A DNA stretch of 64,000 nucleotides, from the NCBI GenBank assembly GCA_963700175.1, contig CAVOWN010000015.1, positions 275,475-339,474 on the forward strand. The letters run 5' to 3'. The translations under genes were made by a program, and so were the position numbers. Positions 52,549-59,358 of this stretch are shown here, piece by piece (the stretch's first letter is position 1; the number at the start of each line of letters is the position of its first letter). A model generated the notes under the pieces. It did no database searches and had not been told where the DNA came from. It saw only the letters and a list, made by a program, of their open reading frames with translations. Source of the DNA: Terriglobales bacterium. GTDB taxonomy: Bacteria > Acidobacteriota > Terriglobia > Terriglobales > Acidobacteriaceae.

Positions 52549-53097
52549 TTAGAACTTTACGGCTACCGGCTCACGGTCGGCCTCCGCCACTTCAAAGAAC
52601 TGCCGCAGTTGGAAGCCAAACATTCCAGCCAACATGTTTGTGGGGAAAACTTGGATCTTGGTATTTAAATCTCGAACCACAGCGTTGTAGTATCGCCGCG
52701 CATTTTGGATGGTATCTTCGGTCTGGCTGAGTGAGGCTTGTAATTGCAGGAACTGGTCGTTCGCCTTCAGTTCCGGATAGTTCTCCGCCACCGCAAACAG
52801 GCTCTTAAGCGCGCCTGTCAACTGATTTTCGGCAACCGCTTTGTCTGCCGGCGTCGTCGCCTGCATGGCCATCGATCGAAACTTGGCGATGTTTTCGAAG
52901 GTGCCTTTTTCGTGAGCGGCGTATCCCTTCGCAGTCTCGACGAGGTTCGGAATCAGATCGTGACGCCGCTTCAGTTGGACGTCAATGTCGGACCAGGCCG
53001 AATCTGTGCGCACGCGCAATTGCACCAGATTGTTGTACATTCCGACCAGAACGAAGCCGATGACCACCAGAACCACTACTACGATCCAGCCCACCAT
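52549..53097 (-). CDS. lemA: LemA family protein
   Basis: An N-terminal TM segment is followed by YNNLVQLR...VDVQLKRRHDLIPNLVETAKGYAAHE...RRYYNAVVRDLN, the canonical LemA pattern. Confidence 0.88.
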   Translation of the reverse strand: MVGWIVVVVLVVIGFVLVGMYNNLVQLRVRTDSAWSDIDVQLKRRHDLIPNLVETAKGYAAHEKGTFENIAKFRSMAMQATTPADKAVAENQLTGALKSLFAVAENYPELKANDQFLQLQASLSQTEDTIQNARRYYNAVVRDLNTKIQVFPTNMLAGMFGFQLRQFFEVAEADREPVAVKF

Positions 53098-53323
53098 GAA
53101 CGGCCCCTCTCGCCTGCAGTAGATTTCAGAAGGACGGTAACATACGCGGGCCAGCGGCGCAATTGACCCAGGTCATTCTGCCGACATCACAACCAGTAAT
53201 TTTAGAGTGTAAAATTCAAAGTGACCCAAGTGTTCGCAGTCATTGCAGCCCGCATCGCTGAATAGGCATCGTAGAAGACTTGTGGAAACCGTGCCGAAGC
53301 ATTGTCATTCGGGAGATCTATCA

Positions 53324-54343
53324 ATGAAGGTATTTCGCAAAAGTCTGGTTTATTCCATGGCTGGAGCGGCTTTTGCCTTTTTTCTGTGCATCTTCTCTGG
53401 AATTGCCAGCGCGCAAACCTGCTACATGTCCGACGATATGGACGCGGCCACGCGAACCGCTTTGAGCAATGCAGGAAATCGTTATTTCGGAATGATGGCC
53501 AAAGGCGACTCAGTCTCCCTCAGGCAAAATGCCATTCCTGGATTGGCCTCCGATTTTTCCAACATCGAGACCGCGGTTGAAGACAACCAGCCGAACTTTG
53601 CGGCAGGGCAGGCGACGGCGAGACCGCCGTTTGAGTTGAAAGCCGAAGGCGCCGCTGCCCTGGCGCGAGCGGAGTTTCTCTGCGGCGTGTTTGGGGCCAA
53701 CGGTCAAACCTCCAACAGCGCCGAGTTCATTATCCCTAACTTGCCACCAGGCAATTATGGCGTTGTGATCGAAGATGTTTCAACCGCGAAGGGTCCCTAT
53801 TCCGTCACTTTCGTTCTTCAGCAACTGGGAACGGACTGGAAGCTCGGCGGCCTTTACGTCAAGAGCGGTCAAGTTGCAGGTCATGACGGCAAATGGTACG
53901 CCGATCAGGCCCGCGTGTATGGAAGCAAGAAGCAGAATCTCAACGCGTGGTTCTACTTCATGGAAGCCCGCGATCTGCTGGTTCCCGTATCGTTCATGTA
54001 TACCCAAGCCACCGACAAACTATACGACGAATCGCAAGTCGTGAAGCCGGCCGATCTTCCGACTTCAGAGAAGACCGTCGATCTTACTTCTGGTGCCAAG
54101 ACCTATAAGTTGATCGCACTTTTTTCTTTGGCGGTAGGTGCCGACCTCGATGTGGTTGTAAAGTATCAGGCAGCCGATGTTTCCGACACTGGCAAGACAT
54201 TTTCGGCGAATATGGAAGTGATGAAGGCGCTCATTGCGAAGTACCCAGAGCTTCGGGATGCCTTCGCTGGCGTTGTGGCCCGCGCGGTCGAGCCTTCTGG
54301 ACGCGACTACGGATCATTGATGCCAATGAAAGACATCAAGTGA
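53324..54343 (+). CDS. hypothetical secreted protein (339 aa)
   Basis: The ATG at 53324 gives the signal peptide MKVFRKSLVYSMAGAAFAFFLCIFSGIASAQ. No known domain is recognised. Confidence 0.5.
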   Translation: MKVFRKSLVYSMAGAAFAFFLCIFSGIASAQTCYMSDDMDAATRTALSNAGNRYFGMMAKGDSVSLRQNAIPGLASDFSNIETAVEDNQPNFAAGQATARPPFELKAEGAAALARAEFLCGVFGANGQTSNSAEFIIPNLPPGNYGVVIEDVSTAKGPYSVTFVLQQLGTDWKLGGLYVKSGQVAGHDGKWYADQARVYGSKKQNLNAWFYFMEARDLLVPVSFMYTQATDKLYDESQVVKPADLPTSEKTVDLTSGAKTYKLIALFSLAVGADLDVVVKYQAADVSDTGKTFSANMEVMKALIAKYPELRDAFAGVVARAVEPSGRDYGSLMPMKDIK

Positions 54344-54356
54344 GAAGGTTTCCCGG

Positions 54357-55337
54357 TTAACGTTTGTGGGGACCTTGTTCTGAAAACGTGCACTCTTTCG
54401 GATTTTTGTCTTTCCTCAGCCCAAGGTAAACCGGCGCCCGCAACTTTAACCCGCCTTCCCCCGTCTCATGTGTCCATTCAGTGAACCTGACTTCGGCAAC
54501 CCGCGAAGGTTTTACCCAGTGCACATTCTTCGCATCCACCCCGCCGTCAAAGGGGATACTTCTTGTTTCCAGCTTTTCCAGCACGTGGTAGACATTTTTC
54601 AAGGTCGCGTGGTCAAAACCTGTTCCGACTTGTCCGACATGAATGAGCCTGCGCTTGGCATCGTAAAGCCCCAGTACAAGCGATCCAAAGTATGGCCGTG
54701 TTCCTTCCGGATCGGTGTAACCTCCGATTACTGCATCGACCGTCTGCGTGACCTTTATCTTCAACCATTCCCGGCTGCGGCGTTCTTCGTAGCAGCTCTC
54801 ACGTCGCTTCGCCAGGATTCCCTCCAGCCCCTGCTGCTTGGCCGCGTTGAACAGTGCGTTGCCTTTTTCCGGAAAATGTTCGGAGTAGCGGACAAGTTCG
54901 TCGGTGATCAGAATCTGCGCAAGGATTTGCTTACGCTGCTCAAGCGTAACGCGCCGCAAGTCGTAGCCATCCACGTAAATCAGATCAAAGACGTAATAGG
55001 CAATTTGCACGTCCGACCGCCCCGCGACACGCCGTCCCCCGCTGCGGATTCCCGTGCGCTGCTGCATGAGGCTGAACGAGGATCGCCCATGTTCATCGAG
55101 GGCGACGATTTCGCCGTCCAGGATGGCGGTCTTGGCTTTTACATATTTCGGTAAAACTCCGAGTTCGACATACTGCCCCGTAAGGTCATTTTGATTGCGC
55201 GAGACGAATCGTACAGCGCCGCCCTCAAGGAAGGAGACCGCCCGGTAACCGTCCCACTTAATTTCGAACAACCATTCAGCGTCATCGAAAGGCTTTTCGA
55301 CCGGAGTCGCCAGCATGGGTGTGATCTTGGCTGGCAT
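54357..55337 (-). CDS. ATP-dependent DNA ligase, LigD ligase-domain type (NHEJ)
   Basis: The N-terminus is ITPMLAT. The adenylation motif I is EIKWDGYR (KxDG), and later nucleotidyltransferase/OB motifs are present (LDGEIV, EGILAKR, WLKIK). The length is 326 aa. Confidence 0.88.
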   Translation of the reverse strand: MPAKITPMLATPVEKPFDDAEWLFEIKWDGYRAVSFLEGGAVRFVSRNQNDLTGQYVELGVLPKYVKAKTAILDGEIVALDEHGRSSFSLMQQRTGIRSGGRRVAGRSDVQIAYYVFDLIYVDGYDLRRVTLEQRKQILAQILITDELVRYSEHFPEKGNALFNAAKQQGLEGILAKRRESCYEERRSREWLKIKVTQTVDAVIGGYTDPEGTRPYFGSLVLGLYDAKRRLIHVGQVGTGFDHATLKNVYHVLEKLETRSIPFDGGVDAKNVHWVKPSRVAEVRFTEWTHETGEGGLKLRAPVYLGLRKDKNPKECTFSEQGPHKR

Positions 55338-55447
55338 AGCGCGCCGGACAGGGCCTTTGACAGTCTTTAACAGCAGAGGAACTGAAGACGTAGAGAACTT
55401 CGAACCAGTAGATGCAGGCTCGTCGGAAGACCGTACCTCAGCATTCT

Positions 55448-56200
55448 TCAGTTTTTTTTTACTTTGCGTTCCTTTGTGTCCCCTGTGGCTGCCTGAGCTT
55501 TCGAATTATTCCTATCGAGTTTCGCCAGGGTCTCTGCAAGCCACGGCGCTTTGACTTTGCCTGACGCCGCTTTGCTACTTTTCCACTTGGCCGCATCTTC
55601 GGCGCCTGCGACCTGCGCCATGGTTTTTCTACTGAGCACCGAAGTATCGAATTTATCGATGTCATATCCCTCGACAACAAACTCATCGTGCTTCTTGATC
55701 AGCAACCACTCATTGCCTTTACTGCCCGGACGCCGCGCCTTGATGTGGATCATCGCGAAATCGCCGTTCAGCCGCTTCCCGTGCAGGCGTATCTTGAAGT
55801 CGCCCTTCTTCAGCATCGCTTCAGCCTCGGCATCCGTGCCGGCGACATACTTCCCTTTCGCCGGCTCCGGAGCTAGCGGTTCCCATGTCCCCACATCCCA
55901 AACCATCACCGTACCCGCACCGTAGTTGTCCTCGGGAATGATGCCTTCGAAATCGAAGTACGACACCGGATGGTCTTCCACCTGCATGGCGAGCCGCTTG
56001 TCGGCAGGGTCAAGCGAGGGGCCTTTCGGTACGGCCCACGACTTCAGAACACCATCCATTTCGAGGCGGAAGTCGTAATGCAGTCGGGTCGCACGATGCC
56101 TCTGCACCACGAAACGGTGTTTCGATTTTTTTTCGATTTTCGGTGGAGGCTCGGGAGTCTCGGCAAATCGGCGTTTGCGTTTATATTCCTCAAGGGCCAT
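55448..56200 (-). CDS. LigD 3'-phosphoesterase (PE) domain protein
   Basis: [19 protein letters not shown]...[14 protein letters not shown]...EDHP...[13 protein letters not shown] is the LigD PE signature. The Lys-rich C-terminus ends in an A9 run. Confidence 0.88.
55451..55460 (-). other. A9 homopolymer / A_AAA_AAC slippery heptamer directly before the PE stop codon
   Basis: The minus strand reads gta aaa aaa aac TGA, which is nine consecutive A (T9 on the plus strand, 55452-55460). In the zero frame the last seven form X_XXY_YYZ = A_AAA_AAC. Confidence 0.6.
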
Positions 56201-56357
56201 CGAAGCATTTTACCTGCACCGCCAAAGAACCGCCCGAGCGGGGGCTGTGAATGGAACGATGCCGCGCTTGCGGTATAATCCGCGCAAAAGAAGCAGAGAA
56301 GTTTTTGCTTCCTGCGATGACCTCATTCTTTGAATGTTCCAGTGGAAGAGCTAATTT

Positions 56358-56924
56358 ATGCCCCCAGACCAACAGTTCGTTACCCAACTCCTTCAGCAAT
56401 GGGGAGACGGTAACAAAGAGGCCCTCGACCAGTTGATGCCCGTGGTCTATGAGCAATTGCATCGGTTGGCATCGCACTGCCTGCGCGGCGAGCGTTCAGA
56501 CCACACCTTGCGCGCTACCGATCTGGTCCATGAAGCCTACGTGCGACTCGTGGACGCTGACGTTGCATGGCAAGACCGAGTACACTTCTTTGCGGTCTCG
56601 GCGCGGCTCCTCCGCCGTATCCTCGTCGATCACGCAAAGTCGCACAACCGCCAAAAACGAGGAGGCGGTGCCGAAAAAATCCCCCTCGACGAGGCGGTGA
56701 TGATTGGCCCCCAGGGAACGGGAGGCATCGTCGAGCTCGATGAAGCGCTACAGCGCCTGGCTGCGCTCGATCAACGCAAGAGCGAACTGATCGAGCTGCT
56801 GTTTTTCGGTGGCCTCACTTATGACGAGGCGGCGGCGGCACTGAAAATTTCTCCCGCCACGGTACACCGCGAATTGAAAATGGCCAAAGCATGGCTGCAT
56901 CACGAACTGGCCGAGCCCGCTTAG
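56358..56924 (+). CDS. ECF sigma factor of the TIGR02999-like type (N-terminal TQLLQQWGDGNKEALDQL motif)
   Basis: The N-terminus VTQLLQQWGDGNKEALDQLMPVVYEQLHRLA...LRATDLVHEAYVRL is characteristic of this ECF group. The region 4 HTH reads LTYDEAAAALKISPATVHRELKMAKAWL. Confidence 0.8.
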   Translation: MPPDQQFVTQLLQQWGDGNKEALDQLMPVVYEQLHRLASHCLRGERSDHTLRATDLVHEAYVRLVDADVAWQDRVHFFAVSARLLRRILVDHAKSHNRQKRGGGAEKIPLDEAVMIGPQGTGGIVELDEALQRLAALDQRKSELIELLFFGGLTYDEAAAALKISPATVHRELKMAKAWLHHELAEPA

Positions 56925-56936
56925 GGTTGTCGAAGC

Positions 56937-57380
56937 TCAGCGCGAATGGTACGCGGCGCGCAACAGGAACATCTCATCGACAGATTGCTGTTCCCGCCGA
57001 AGCTGTTCCCTTTGATTGGCTTCTCGTTGGTGGCGGAGTAGGGTTTCGACCATTTCGCGCGACTGCCGCGCCTGCAACAAGCATCGCATCTGTAGATTGC
57101 GTTGGATCACCTCCGCCGCAAGTTTCGCTTGCAGAATCCGGCCGTGCGCCGCCAGGGTAGATCGGCAAAGTTCATCAAAGTGTAGTTCCGAAGCTCGCAG
57201 GATGCCGGCTAGCTTTTCTCGCTCTTGATTCATGTGTCTTCTGAGTCGGCCTTCGATCTCAGAGATTCTCTCTTGTAAGCCTCCGACCCGTTGGTTCAGT
57301 TCCTGCAGCAGAAGTTCCTGCTGGCGCTCTTCGCTTAACCGTAATTTCTGAAGTGTTTCGAGTCCCGATCGAGGCGCCAT
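56937..57380 (-). CDS. fliJ: flagellar export chaperone FliJ-like coiled-coil protein
   Basis: It is 147 aa, highly charged and coiled-coil (Q/E/R-rich). It lies immediately downstream of fliI with a 2-nt gap, which is the canonical fliJ position. Confidence 0.6.
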   Translation of the reverse strand: MAPRSGLETLQKLRLSEERQQELLLQELNQRVGGLQERISEIEGRLRRHMNQEREKLAGILRASELHFDELCRSTLAAHGRILQAKLAAEVIQRNLQMRCLLQARQSREMVETLLRHQREANQREQLRREQQSVDEMFLLRAAYHSR

Positions 57381-57382
57381 TT

Positions 57383-58696
57383 CTAGACCGGAATCGCCAG
57401 AAGTTGATCGATATTCAGTTGCAGCGCGACCGCCTCGTTCGGGCCTTGTTCAAGAAACGCGTTTAGCCGGGGGAGCACTGCCAGCGCCTTGTCCAGAGTG
57501 GGATCGCTTCCTTTTTGATAAGCGCCAATCCGCACCAGGTCCTCCGACGCCGCGTAGGCAGCCAGCAGGCGACGCAATGCCTGGGCCCGTTGAAGATGTG
57601 GCGCAGAGCAAACCATTGGCATAAGCCGGCTAATGCTATCGAGAATTGCGATCGGAGGATAATGATTTTGCGCGGCCAGCCTTCGGTCCAGCATGATATG
57701 TCCGTCGAGCAGAGCCCGGGCTCCGTCGACCAGGGGATCCTGCTGATCGTCGCCTTCCATCAACACAGTATAAAAAGCTGTAATACTGCCGCTGTCGAAT
57801 TTTCCTGCCCGCTCAATCAGCCTGGCCATCATGGTGAATACCGAGGGAGTGTAGCCTTTGGCTGTCGGAGGTTCTCCTGCGGCCAATCCGATCTCGCGCT
57901 GCGCCATGGCAAGTCGCGTCAGCGAGTCGACTACCAGGAGTACGTTCTTGCCCTGCGAGGAAAAATATTCCGCAATGGTAGTCGCCGCCAGAGCCGCACG
58001 AATGCGCAAAAGCGGGGACTGGTCGGAAGTCGAAACCACGACCACGGTGCGCTTTCTTCCTTCCTCGCCCAGAGCCTCCTCCAAAAAGTGTCGCACCTCA
58101 CGGCCGCGCTCCCCGACCAGCGCCAGAACCGTGAGATCGGCGTTCGTATTACGGGCCATCATCCCGATCAGCGTGCTTTTGCCCACGCCGCTGCCGCCGA
58201 AAATTCCGATGCGTTGTCCGCGGCCACATGTCAGGAATCCGTCGACTGCCCGGATGCCGCAACCCAGCGCCTCATGAATCAAACTTCTTTCCAACGGCAA
58301 AGGTGCAGCGGTATCCAGCAAGCGGCGGGAGTTTCCGACGCGGGGATTAGAATCCAGCGGCTCCCCAACTCCGTCGATTACGCGTCCCAATAGCCCATCT
58401 CCCACGCGCAGCGTGGGACGCTCGCCCCAGGTTACCACCGAGTCTCCAAATCGAATTCCAGTTGGCCGCTCCAGTGGCATGGAGAGTACAGTCGTGCCAC
58501 GGAACCCGACAATTTCTCCCGGAAAGATGCGCCCCTCTGCATTGACAATTTCGCATTGTTCTCCTACCGAGCAGAAAGGGCCATCCGACTCGACCAGTTG
58601 TCCGGTGACTTGGCTGACTCGTCCGCGCCAGCGCAGGGCTGAACAGGCTGCCAAACGGTCGCGATAAGAAGAGAGCGAACTTGAGGGCGTCGTCAT
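57383..58696 (-). CDS. fliI: flagellum-specific type III secretion ATPase FliI
   Basis: It has Walker A GGSGVGKST, Walker B LLVVDSLTR and F1-ATPase-like architecture. The gene context is flagellar. Confidence 0.92.
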   Translation of the reverse strand: MTTPSSSLSSYRDRLAACSALRWRGRVSQVTGQLVESDGPFCSVGEQCEIVNAEGRIFPGEIVGFRGTTVLSMPLERPTGIRFGDSVVTWGERPTLRVGDGLLGRVIDGVGEPLDSNPRVGNSRRLLDTAAPLPLERSLIHEALGCGIRAVDGFLTCGRGQRIGIFGGSGVGKSTLIGMMARNTNADLTVLALVGERGREVRHFLEEALGEEGRKRTVVVVSTSDQSPLLRIRAALAATTIAEYFSSQGKNVLLVVDSLTRLAMAQREIGLAAGEPPTAKGYTPSVFTMMARLIERAGKFDSGSITAFYTVLMEGDDQQDPLVDGARALLDGHIMLDRRLAAQNHYPPIAILDSISRLMPMVCSAPHLQRAQALRRLLAAYAASEDLVRIGAYQKGSDPTLDKALAVLPRLNAFLEQGPNEAVALQLNIDQLLAIPV

Positions 58697-59358
58697 TTCG
58701 AGGCGTCCGGACGGCTAGCCAGCAGGTCGCACAGGCCCTGTTCGATTTCCTTCAATTGTGCGTTGATCCCGATCTCGGTAGTCCCGAGCGTGGTCTGCAA
58801 TACACAACATTCCTTCGCTACTGTCGCGTCTTCCAGCACCTCGAAAGTGTCTTGTGTCTCCATGTGATGGGCAAAATAGCTGCGAAACTCGGAAACCTGC
58901 TGCGGATGGACCCGCATTGTAGTTTTAGTACTAGACTCAATTCTCTGTAACGCCACGTGTACCATGCCCGCCAGCAATAGCGGATCCAATTGCGACTCGC
59001 GGTGCAAGACCTTGCGGGCGATGCTCAAAGCAAGCCGCACCACCTCACCTTCCACTTGCTGGAAATAGATTCGCCGTTCCGCGGCCAAGCTCGCCAGCGC
59101 GTCCCGCACGCTCGTCCGAATCTGGGTTAGTCGCGCTTCATACTCGGCCCGAGCCCGGCCTTCGCCCTCCTGGCGGGCTTGTTCCTTAATTGCTGAGTCC
59201 CGTCTCGAAGCCTCAGTCGCCAAGTCTTTTTCCGGAACTTGTGTTGATCGCGACCCCGCGTCGGTCGCCGCGGAGAGCGCTGGCAGTTCAGGATAGGGGA
59301 AGGAGTCCACACCTGGACTCGGCATCGGCTCGGGAGCCGGACTAGACGACGTATTCAT
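58693..59358 (-). CDS. fliH: flagellar assembly protein FliH
   Basis: It is 221 aa with a charged coiled-coil N-half and a C-terminal FliH/YscL-like domain. It lies between fliG and fliI and overlaps both. Confidence 0.7.
   Translation of the reverse strand: MNTSSSPAPEPMPSPGVDSFPYPELPALSAATDAGSRSTQVPEKDLATEASRRDSAIKEQARQEGEGRARAEYEARLTQIRTSVRDALASLAAERRIYFQQVEGEVVRLALSIARKVLHRESQLDPLLLAGMVHVALQRIESSTKTTMRVHPQQVSEFRSYFAHHMETQDTFEVLEDATVAKECCVLQTTLGTTEIGINAQLKEIEQGLCDLLASRPDASK

Follow-up and report, generated by a model that had tools for sequence, protein, structure and literature searches.

Organization of the ligD locus

The window analyzed here, i.e. the whole stretch of 64,000 nucleotides (64 kb) from contig CAVOWN010000015.1 of a Terriglobales bacterium, carries on its minus strand two adjacent open reading frames (ORFs) for the phosphoesterase (PE) and the ATP-dependent ligase (Lig) domains of LigD, an enzyme of non-homologous end joining (NHEJ). 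The ORFs lie in different frames, and a run of nine adenines (A9) stands at the junction between them (Table 1). The PE ORF matches the profiles PF13298 (LigD_N; 3e-44, 150 bits against a cut-off of 31.1) and TIGR02777 (1.2e-62, 210 bits against a cut-off of 144), and the ligase ORF matches TIGR02779 (6.4e-93, 311 bits against a cut-off of 227.75), its adenylation and OB domains being recognized by PF01068 (9.7e-34) and PF04679 (7.6e-26), respectively. Moreover, the two ORFs tile adjacent stretches (5-233 and 240-546) of the full-length LigD profile PRK05972.

As directly observed on the minus strand, the PE ORF ends with ...CGC AAA GTA AAA AAA AAC TGA, the run being followed by C at position 55451 and then by the stop codon, 110 nt before the ligase ATG at 55337. 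Not only A_AAA_AAC is in phase here, but also A_AAA_AAA one codon upstream of it. No stop interrupts the ligase frame from position 55505, 56 codons before the ATG, across the run and down to the end of the ligase ORF, and the A9 lies inside the overlap of the two open frames. In the window spacer there is no ATG, GTG or TTG before 55337. One added A, or equivalently a -1 ribosomal slip, yields in translation a PE-Lig fusion of 614 amino acids (aa).

These observations agree with an earlier note on this DNA, which had described the end of the PE gene with the A9 and the in-phase A_AAA_AAC, the stop-free reading of the 110-nt spacer into the ligase frame after a -1 slip or an extra A (our translation is the one written there), and a PE-linker-Lig product of about 610 aa, for which the profiles confirm both domain identities. 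The note had also called an A9 unusual at this GC content. Indeed, the window has 57% GC, and its only homopolymers of at least 8 nt in 64 kb are this A9 and one A8, both in the PE gene of ligD.

A search with the hypothetical fusion was made in a collection of 5.8 billion proteins, and the best 120 matches were considered. All of them are single PE-Lig proteins of 593-640 aa, 70-76% identical to the query at 99-100% coverage, so the fused PE-Lig architecture is the norm of the family. Lig-only proteins of 313-350 aa are also common in this collection (dozens of 90% clusters, several on contigs longer than 100 kb), being annotated as 'bifunctional NHEJ protein LigD' or 'non-homologous end-joining DNA ligase'; therefore, the split layout is widespread in public annotation, where it is not flagged.

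Table 1. Features of the ligD locus, in window coordinates
Feature	Position	Strand	Remarks
Putative recoded ligD unit (PE, linker with A9, ligase)	54357..56200	(-)	fusion translation
PE ORF, zero frame, including the N-terminal part of the linker	55448..56200	(-)	250 aa; product of standard decoding
A9 homopolymer (T9 on the plus strand), proposed slippage site	55452..55460	(-)	
A_AAA_AAC heptamer	55451..55457	(-)	phase correct for -1 ribosomal frameshifting
Zero-frame TGA directly 3' of the slippery run	55448..55450	(-)	ends the PE-only product
114-nt spacer, C-terminal part of the PE-Lig linker	55338..55451	(-)	38 codons; coding only in the ligase (-1) frame
Ligase ORF (LigD ATP-dependent ligase domain)	54357..55337	(-)	326 aa; -1 frame relative to PE

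Frame states and the A-run in Terriglobales orthologues

Orthologous loci were taken from the best 80 of 453 GTDB matches, which are species-representative metagenome-assembled genomes (MAGs) of Terriglobales/Terriglobia; 79 of these loci include the PE part. PE and ligase are in one frame in 56 loci, in 21 loci the ligase is reached by a -1 shift, and in two by a +1 shift. Irrespective of the frame state, a linker run of A9-A11 is directly observed in 72 of the 79 loci. In particular, runs of at least A9 are found in 50 of the 56 in-frame loci (A9 in 34, A10 in 16, A11 in none), in 20 of the 21 -1 loci (A9 in 15, A10 in four, A11 in one) and in both +1 loci (one A9, one A10, no A11). Thus, the run length stays at 9-10 whatever the frame state, and A8 is absent from all shifted loci, though A9 is the commonest in-frame class. 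The 530 kb that flank the orthologous genes have no homopolymer of nine or longer, and just six of eight.

Among the -1 loci, the run coincides exactly with the overlap of the open frames everywhere except in L070 (20 of 21); of the two +1 loci, it does so in L018 but not in L004. On the tree the in-frame and -1 states are intermixed, and within this one order the state has switched independently many times. Close pairs differ in various ways. L059 and L060 differ by a 10-nt indel immediately after A10, and L021 and L023 by the loss of a T before A9, the frame being altered and the run kept in both cases, while L008 differs from L025 and L027 in the run itself (A9 vs. A10). Hence, frame changes between close pairs stem from different events while the run persists.

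In addition, two A9-10 runs are present in a single linker of L017, L035 and L079, and A9 or A10 is accompanied by A8 in L020, L048 and L057. Such pairs of long A-runs at different linker sites agree with repeated gain and turnover of runs, rather than with a single ancestral site.

Six loci, all of them Nanopore MAGs, were left out of the repaired alignment because of extra frame problems: L068, L070, L075 and L078 have additional frame breaks within the PE region, L050 is interrupted by a stop in frame at codon 229, and the sixth is L004. They may represent assembly errors or real pseudogenes.

Selection on the run

In the catalytic domains of these genes only 40% of Lys codons are AAA, and KKK is never encoded there as AAAAAAAAA (0 of 13 cases). 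Resampling of codons for the real in-frame linker peptides produces a run of at least A9 in 5.3 of 53 loci with the codon usage of the family, and in 13.7 of 53 even with the run-inflated usage of the linkers, compared to 47 observed. Synonymous sites have nearly saturated between these species (pS 0.5-0.9), and the run therefore cannot be accounted for by inheritance alone. Moreover, it is found at no fewer than three different positions of the linker alignment and in codon phases 0, 1 and 2; therefore, selection acts on having a run, not on the peptide or on a particular site. Conservation of the run among orthologues exceeds the demands of peptide and codon usage, as is expected of genes with programmed transcriptional realignment.

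The EKK site of the PE domain (PE codons 23-25, 56126-56133), whose peptide is common among orthologues, served as a control: A8 occurs there in 3 of 65 orthologues, and a run of at least A7 in 6 of 65. This A8 was considered as a second slippery site and rejected, being kept in 3/65 orthologues only, though EKK is common. The earlier note was right about an A8 in the same gene, but its coordinates are 56126-56133 and not 56125-56132, and it is not conserved and looks unremarkable.

In three LigDs from proteobacterial plasmids (61-62% GC) the longest homopolymer of the PE-Lig region does not exceed 6 nt, and LigD of Legionella (36% GC) has no run of 9 or more, with none in the linker. In the sequences compared, the putative slippery linker is specific to this acidobacterial clade.

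Coding of the spacer and constraint on the ligase

When translated in the ligase frame, the window spacer aligns with the linker motif of orthologues, ...SSVSSVV-KDLxGAVKRP-MP (consensus end KDLAGAVKRP-MP). The ligase frame is open in all 21 shifted loci repairable at the run, compared to 3 of 130 cases for the alternative frames of the spacer segment across all loci, and so the reservation of the earlier note, that 37 open codons could be due to chance, does not hold. The motif preceding the ligase Met matches the consensus at 66% in shifted loci and at 71% in in-frame loci. The ratio of nonsynonymous to synonymous differences per site (pN/pS), obtained by crude NG86 counts on protein-guided alignments with near-saturated pS, is also similar for spacers of different states: 0.62 in shifted-shifted pairs, 0.50 in pairs of shifted and in-frame loci, and 0.61 in in-frame pairs. 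The ligase ORF is intact in the 21 repairable shifted loci, with pN/pS of 0.05-0.27 in the shifted pairs tested outside the clade of the window. These data indicate that the downstream sequence is protein-coding in the shifted frame and that the ligase is under purifying selection.

The Met that opens the ligase domain (RP-MP-xxIxPMLAT; 55335-55337 in the window) is encoded by ATG in 42 of 44 in-frame and 17 of 20 -1 loci, being missing in shifted loci L019, L034 and L059. It could be an internal start for a third, ligase-only product, or simply a structural residue. A crude scan of the minus strand found no sigma-70-like promoter for a ligase-only transcript in the spacer.

The species and clade of the window

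The A9 and the layout of the window are reproduced in three independent assemblies of the same species (ENA, Logan and JGI; L081, L082 and L087) with 99.6-99.98% identity. The exact ligase protein of the window is present on the ENA and Logan contigs. The JGI contig, retrieved by a DNA pattern allowing A8-A12, is 99.6% identical to the window, with 19 single-nucleotide polymorphisms (SNPs) and no gaps; the five ligase SNPs between L087 and the window are too few to bear on selection.

The nearest relatives found by a ligase-only search have 90, 89, 83 and 82% identity, and all of them are Lig-only proteins. Their contigs (L089-L094, JGI/ENA, from short-read metagenomes), which represent four further lineages of this clade, show the A9, the -1 layout and the same synteny, so that the stability of A9 across strains and lineages is observed directly. 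The end of the PE gene reads GTA AAA AAA AAC T(G/A)A in four of the five clade lineages, TGA or TAA being found at the position of the window stop in L089, L090/L091 and L093/L094. The distance from the run to the ATG is 114, 111, 114, 117 and 108 nt in the five lineages, always a multiple of three, and the spacer is open in the ligase frame in 5/5, retaining the peptide ...LKTVKGxVRRA. All lineages of this clade are shifted, and pN/pS of their ligases is 0.11-0.17 (pS of 0.38-0.71). No fused allele with more than 76% identity to the window is seen among the best 120 matches of the fusion search.

Because the A9/-1 layout is clade-wide and accompanied by such pN/pS values, the split state is old, inherited and compatible with a functional ligase. 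The suggestion of a recent frameshift mutation that split ligD, made in the earlier note, is correct in that fused genes are the majority and a frameshift did split ligD historically; the split is, however, old and maintained, not recent or degenerative (pS is up to 0.7).

Proposed mechanism and its alternatives

We propose, with a probability of about 0.65, that the PE and ligase ORFs constitute one ligD gene, the interdomain linker of which carries a selected slippery A9 tract giving both PE and PE-Lig. Of the readings listed in the earlier note, comparative evidence favours this one, i.e. genuine recoding. The note had proposed a check of orthologues, and there fused forms are common, the homopolymer is conserved, and the spacers have no stops in the fusion frame. 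Slippage itself in these organisms, its level, the machine responsible and the roles of the isoforms are inferred.

Standard decoding of the window allele would stop at the TGA right after the tract and produce a stand-alone PE of about 28 kDa. A fraction of expression events would shift to the -1 frame inside the tract and proceed through the remaining 38 codons of the linker into the ligase, resulting in the 614-aa PE-Lig. The most likely shift step is realignment of RNA polymerase (RNAP), i.e. transcriptional slippage adding one A, because such a tract fills the entire RNA:DNA hybrid of 9-10 bp; bacterial RNAP, whose hybrid has this length, is reported to slip with high efficiency in vivo where nine A or T follow each other (PMC5009743). 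Transcriptional realignment fits the run length of 9-10, the irrelevance of phase, the lack of a stimulatory structure, and the excess of layouts that need one added A (21 loci require -1 and two require +1; all nine shifted loci with short-read-style contig names require -1). This bias in direction matches published slippage, which mainly adds A's (PMC5009743). Ribosomal -1 frameshifting on A_AAA_AAA or A_AAA_AAC may contribute.

In the in-frame species slippage would act in reverse, yielding mostly PE-Lig and some truncated PE, since the alternative frames past the run stop there within 0-53 codons (mostly fewer than about 20). As the tract would let both products arise from either layout, lineages could move between the in-frame and -1 states without loss of the ligase. 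We also tend to think, somewhat less firmly, that LigD of the whole order Terriglobales is an unrecognised recoded gene, in which A9-10 makes RNAP, and perhaps ribosomes, slip and sets the ratio of free PE to PE-Lig per cell. One may speculate that the tract ties the supply of a mutagenic NHEJ ligase to the growth state via transcription-dependent slippage.

Several observations weigh against this interpretation, which relies on comparative evidence throughout. The tract is not indispensable, as a run of at least A9 is missing from six in-frame loci (five with no run longer than A6 and one with A8) and from shifted L070. In L004 (3874-3884, +1) the PE stop TAA overlaps the start of A10, and the frames cannot be joined at the run. 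Some Nanopore loci may contain homopolymer miscalls, and the excess of -1 layouts could partly reflect a mutation spectrum biased towards deletions. The constraint on the spacer is weak (pN/pS about 0.6), and the pN/pS estimates are crude, as noted above. A stimulatory structure was sought downstream and not found: folding of the 117 nt that follow the run is no better than that of shuffled sequences (z = 0.05), in line with the earlier note, which saw no strong hairpin there, and Rfam has no match in 55000-56400. The Shine-Dalgarno sequences of the PE and ligase starts are both weak, but so are about half of the uncurated ORF starts in the window, and their comparison speaks neither way. The ligase could be translated by independent initiation at the conserved ATG 55337, and this may well happen in addition to recoding. 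Finally, RNAP slippage, -1 programmed ribosomal frameshifting (PRF) and ribosome sliding on poly(A) are indistinguishable by sequence.

The same products would arise from faithful transcripts if the ribosome made the shift, either by -1 PRF on A_AAA_AAA or A_AAA_AAC aided by the adjacent stop, or by sliding on AAA codons, which we consider unlikely. Both heptamers are in the zero-frame phase in the window, which is not discriminating, because any A9 contains one. Four of the five clade lineages keep AAA AAC followed by TGA/TAA, A_AAA_AAC is an established -1 PRF motif for which no stimulator is known (PMC4066793), and 21 of the 23 shifted loci need -1. Still, PRF requires just 7 nt in a fixed phase, while the run is held at 9-10, occurs in three phases and moves along the linker; across loci neither a conserved phase nor a stimulatory structure is seen; the +1 locus L018 could not be rescued by a -1 shift (though its assembly is a Nanopore one); and runs of nine A are reported to make bacterial RNAP slip efficiently anyway (PMC5009743). 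Given that the phase and the adjacent stop are conserved in the clade of the window, a ribosomal contribution is plausible there. Less likely still are two ordinary genes, with ligD split by an old indel, the ligase translated from ATG 55337, and the A-run being a tolerated leftover of a Lys-rich linker that plays no part in decoding. The ligase domain does begin with a conserved ATG, separate PE and Lig genes are known as a non-conventional organization of NHEJ (PMC7719229), and many Lig-only proteins of 313-350 aa have been called, but this account leaves aside that the A9-A11 run occurs in 72/79 species, including in-frame ones, far above the codon-usage expectation, that the spacer is stop-free in the ligase frame in 21/21 repairable shifted loci vs. 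3/130 alternative frames, that spacer indels in the clade are all multiples of three, that the linker motif before the ATG is kept at the level of fused genes with the same pN/pS, and that the Met itself is missing in three shifted loci.

Even less probable is a phase-variation (contingency) locus, where replication slippage would toggle the ligase between ON (fused) and OFF (split), the window being OFF. Such a locus would suit the homopolymer where the frames meet, the intermixing of the two frame states on the tree after repeated independent switches, A9 vs. A10 in some close relatives, and the slipping of DNA polymerase on poly-A/T tracts (PMC3711429). However, A9/-1 is fixed in the window, in the three other assemblies of its species and throughout the five lineages of the clade, where pS reaches 0.7, so the length polymorphism within a species or among close strains that characterizes phase-variable tracts is absent among them; moreover, no fused allele above 76% identity appears among the best 120 matches, the ligase is under strong purifying selection in the supposedly OFF lineages, several frame switches are not changes in run length, and no shifted locus has A8.

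Very improbable is an artefact or decay, i.e. a miscounted A10 hiding a fused ligD, or a recent frameshift with the ligase becoming a pseudogene. Fused genes are the majority (56/79), and Nanopore assemblies struggle with homopolymers of at least 10 (PMC9262707), although the R10.4 consensus is reported to be reliable for homopolymers shorter than 11 (PMC9262707); the MFD...bin loci of our sample are Nanopore assemblies (PMC12313526), and extra frame breaks are seen in four of the Nanopore loci, as was described above. With the platform inferred from contig naming (k141, k127 and NODE for short reads), the shifted fraction is nevertheless similar, 9 of 33 loci with short-read-style names and 14 of 46 Nanopore loci, and several changes do not concern the run length, so Nanopore homopolymer error was rejected as the cause of the shifted loci. 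One short-read case, L072, was checked by eye and has two ORFs around ggtAAAAAAAAAc. As for the window itself, a sequencing error, the first reading of the earlier note, is refuted, since the ENA, Logan and JGI sequences of this species all have A9, as do the short-read contigs of its four sister lineages. Neither relaxed constraint nor further downstream disruptions, expected of a pseudogene, are observed: the ligase ORF is intact in the 21 repairable shifted loci, with pN/pS of 0.05-0.27 in the pairs tested.

Similarity to known systems

The tau/gamma gene dnaX of Thermus thermophilus resembles ligD in having A9 in the coding region between modules. Realignment of RNAP produces there a mixed mRNA population, mainly with extra A's, and, with no RNA stimulator, long and C-terminally truncated proteins in a ratio of about 1:1 (PMC5009743). 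The in-frame LigD orthologues with A9/A10 share exactly this layout. The differences are that dnaX encodes a clamp loader and not an NHEJ enzyme, that the frame is reversed in the window, where standard decoding gives the short product, and that slippage in LigD is a prediction. The closest match to the layout of the window is dnaX of Chlorobi, where two ORFs are joined at A10 (PMC3711429), the full-length product requiring a frame change at a conserved poly-A of 9-10 (predicted realignment). As in LigD, some members of that family are in-frame and some are split (PMC3711429), but the gene and the phylum are different, and in LigD the run moves along the linker, with the states alternating often within one order.

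The IS1 insA-insB' and IS3-family transposases (A6C, A6G or A7) share with the window the motif A_AAA_AAC, which is the shift motif of IS1, and two ORFs fused at low frequency into an active longer protein (PMC4066793). These genes belong to mobile elements, their runs are shorter and fixed in phase, and a structure often follows downstream, whereas ligD is chromosomal and has 9-10 A's in variable phase and no structure. Poly(A) rescue in insect endosymbionts and mxiE of Shigella (T9) are similar in that out-of-frame genes are expressed via RNAP infidelity at runs of at least 9 (cited in PMC5009743). The endosymbiont genomes, however, are AT-rich and decaying, with many tracts, while the window has 57% GC and this sole run of at least 9 in 64 kb, conserved across species. 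Finally, the window shares with canonical multidomain LigD (Pseudomonas-type PE-Lig-Pol) and with non-conventional split NHEJ enzymes bona fide PE and ligase modules and their order, PE then Lig, but lacks an attached Pol domain.

Novelty and implications

In the open-access literature nothing was found on transcriptional slippage in LigD or ATP-dependent DNA ligases; judging by titles and abstracts, none of the papers retrieved for LigD, homopolymers and frameshifts describes LigD recoding; and the only paper retrieved for Acidobacteria and slippage is the GeneTack one. LigD is mentioned neither in this paper with its supplements nor in a 2016 review of recoding. Mechanisms of this class are known; as far as we can tell, what is new is the gene family, the conservation throughout a clade and the repeated changes between frame states.

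If confirmed, slippage in ligD would add a chromosomal DNA-repair enzyme to the few non-mobile bacterial genes with programmed slippage, for which dnaX is the main established case. The evolutionary signature is unusually clear, with dozens of species, both frame states, a run that is kept while its position moves, and a clade with a fixed split. Pipelines that label such loci as pseudogenes or as two genes would then misjudge the NHEJ capacity of abundant soil Acidobacteria. Moreover, a natural system co-producing free PE and PE-Lig would make the long-unclear division of labour of PE testable, and the family would represent a natural experiment on slippery tracts buffering indels.

Genomic context of ligD

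The neighbourhood of ligD (window 56358-59358 and 52549-54343; L081, L090, L093) is kept in the clade. It includes genes for the FliI ATPase and FliJ and an upstream ORF, i.e. flagellar or type III export genes, a divergent ECF sigma factor gene adjoining ligD, and genes for a secreted-looking protein of 339-366 aa, LemA and an M13 peptidase. The secreted-looking protein has no Pfam match. No Ku or LigD polymerase genes are seen among the immediate neighbours of ligD in the window and the clade, the rest of the genome not having been searched.

Just upstream of the PE ATG, at 56201-56216 on the minus strand, the window reads GCAGGTAAAATGCTTCG-ATG, and the sequence is near-identical in L090, L092 and L093 (GGTAAAATGCT(T/C)CG). 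Since the -10-like TAAAAT, present in the window and in the clade, is only about 7 nt from the PE start codon, this arrangement suggests that ligD mRNA has a very short leader or is leaderless. At the 5' end of the PE gene, the A8 at 56126-56133 forms on the plus strand the T-tail of a terminator-like hairpin (56104-56133), which is antisense to this part of the gene.

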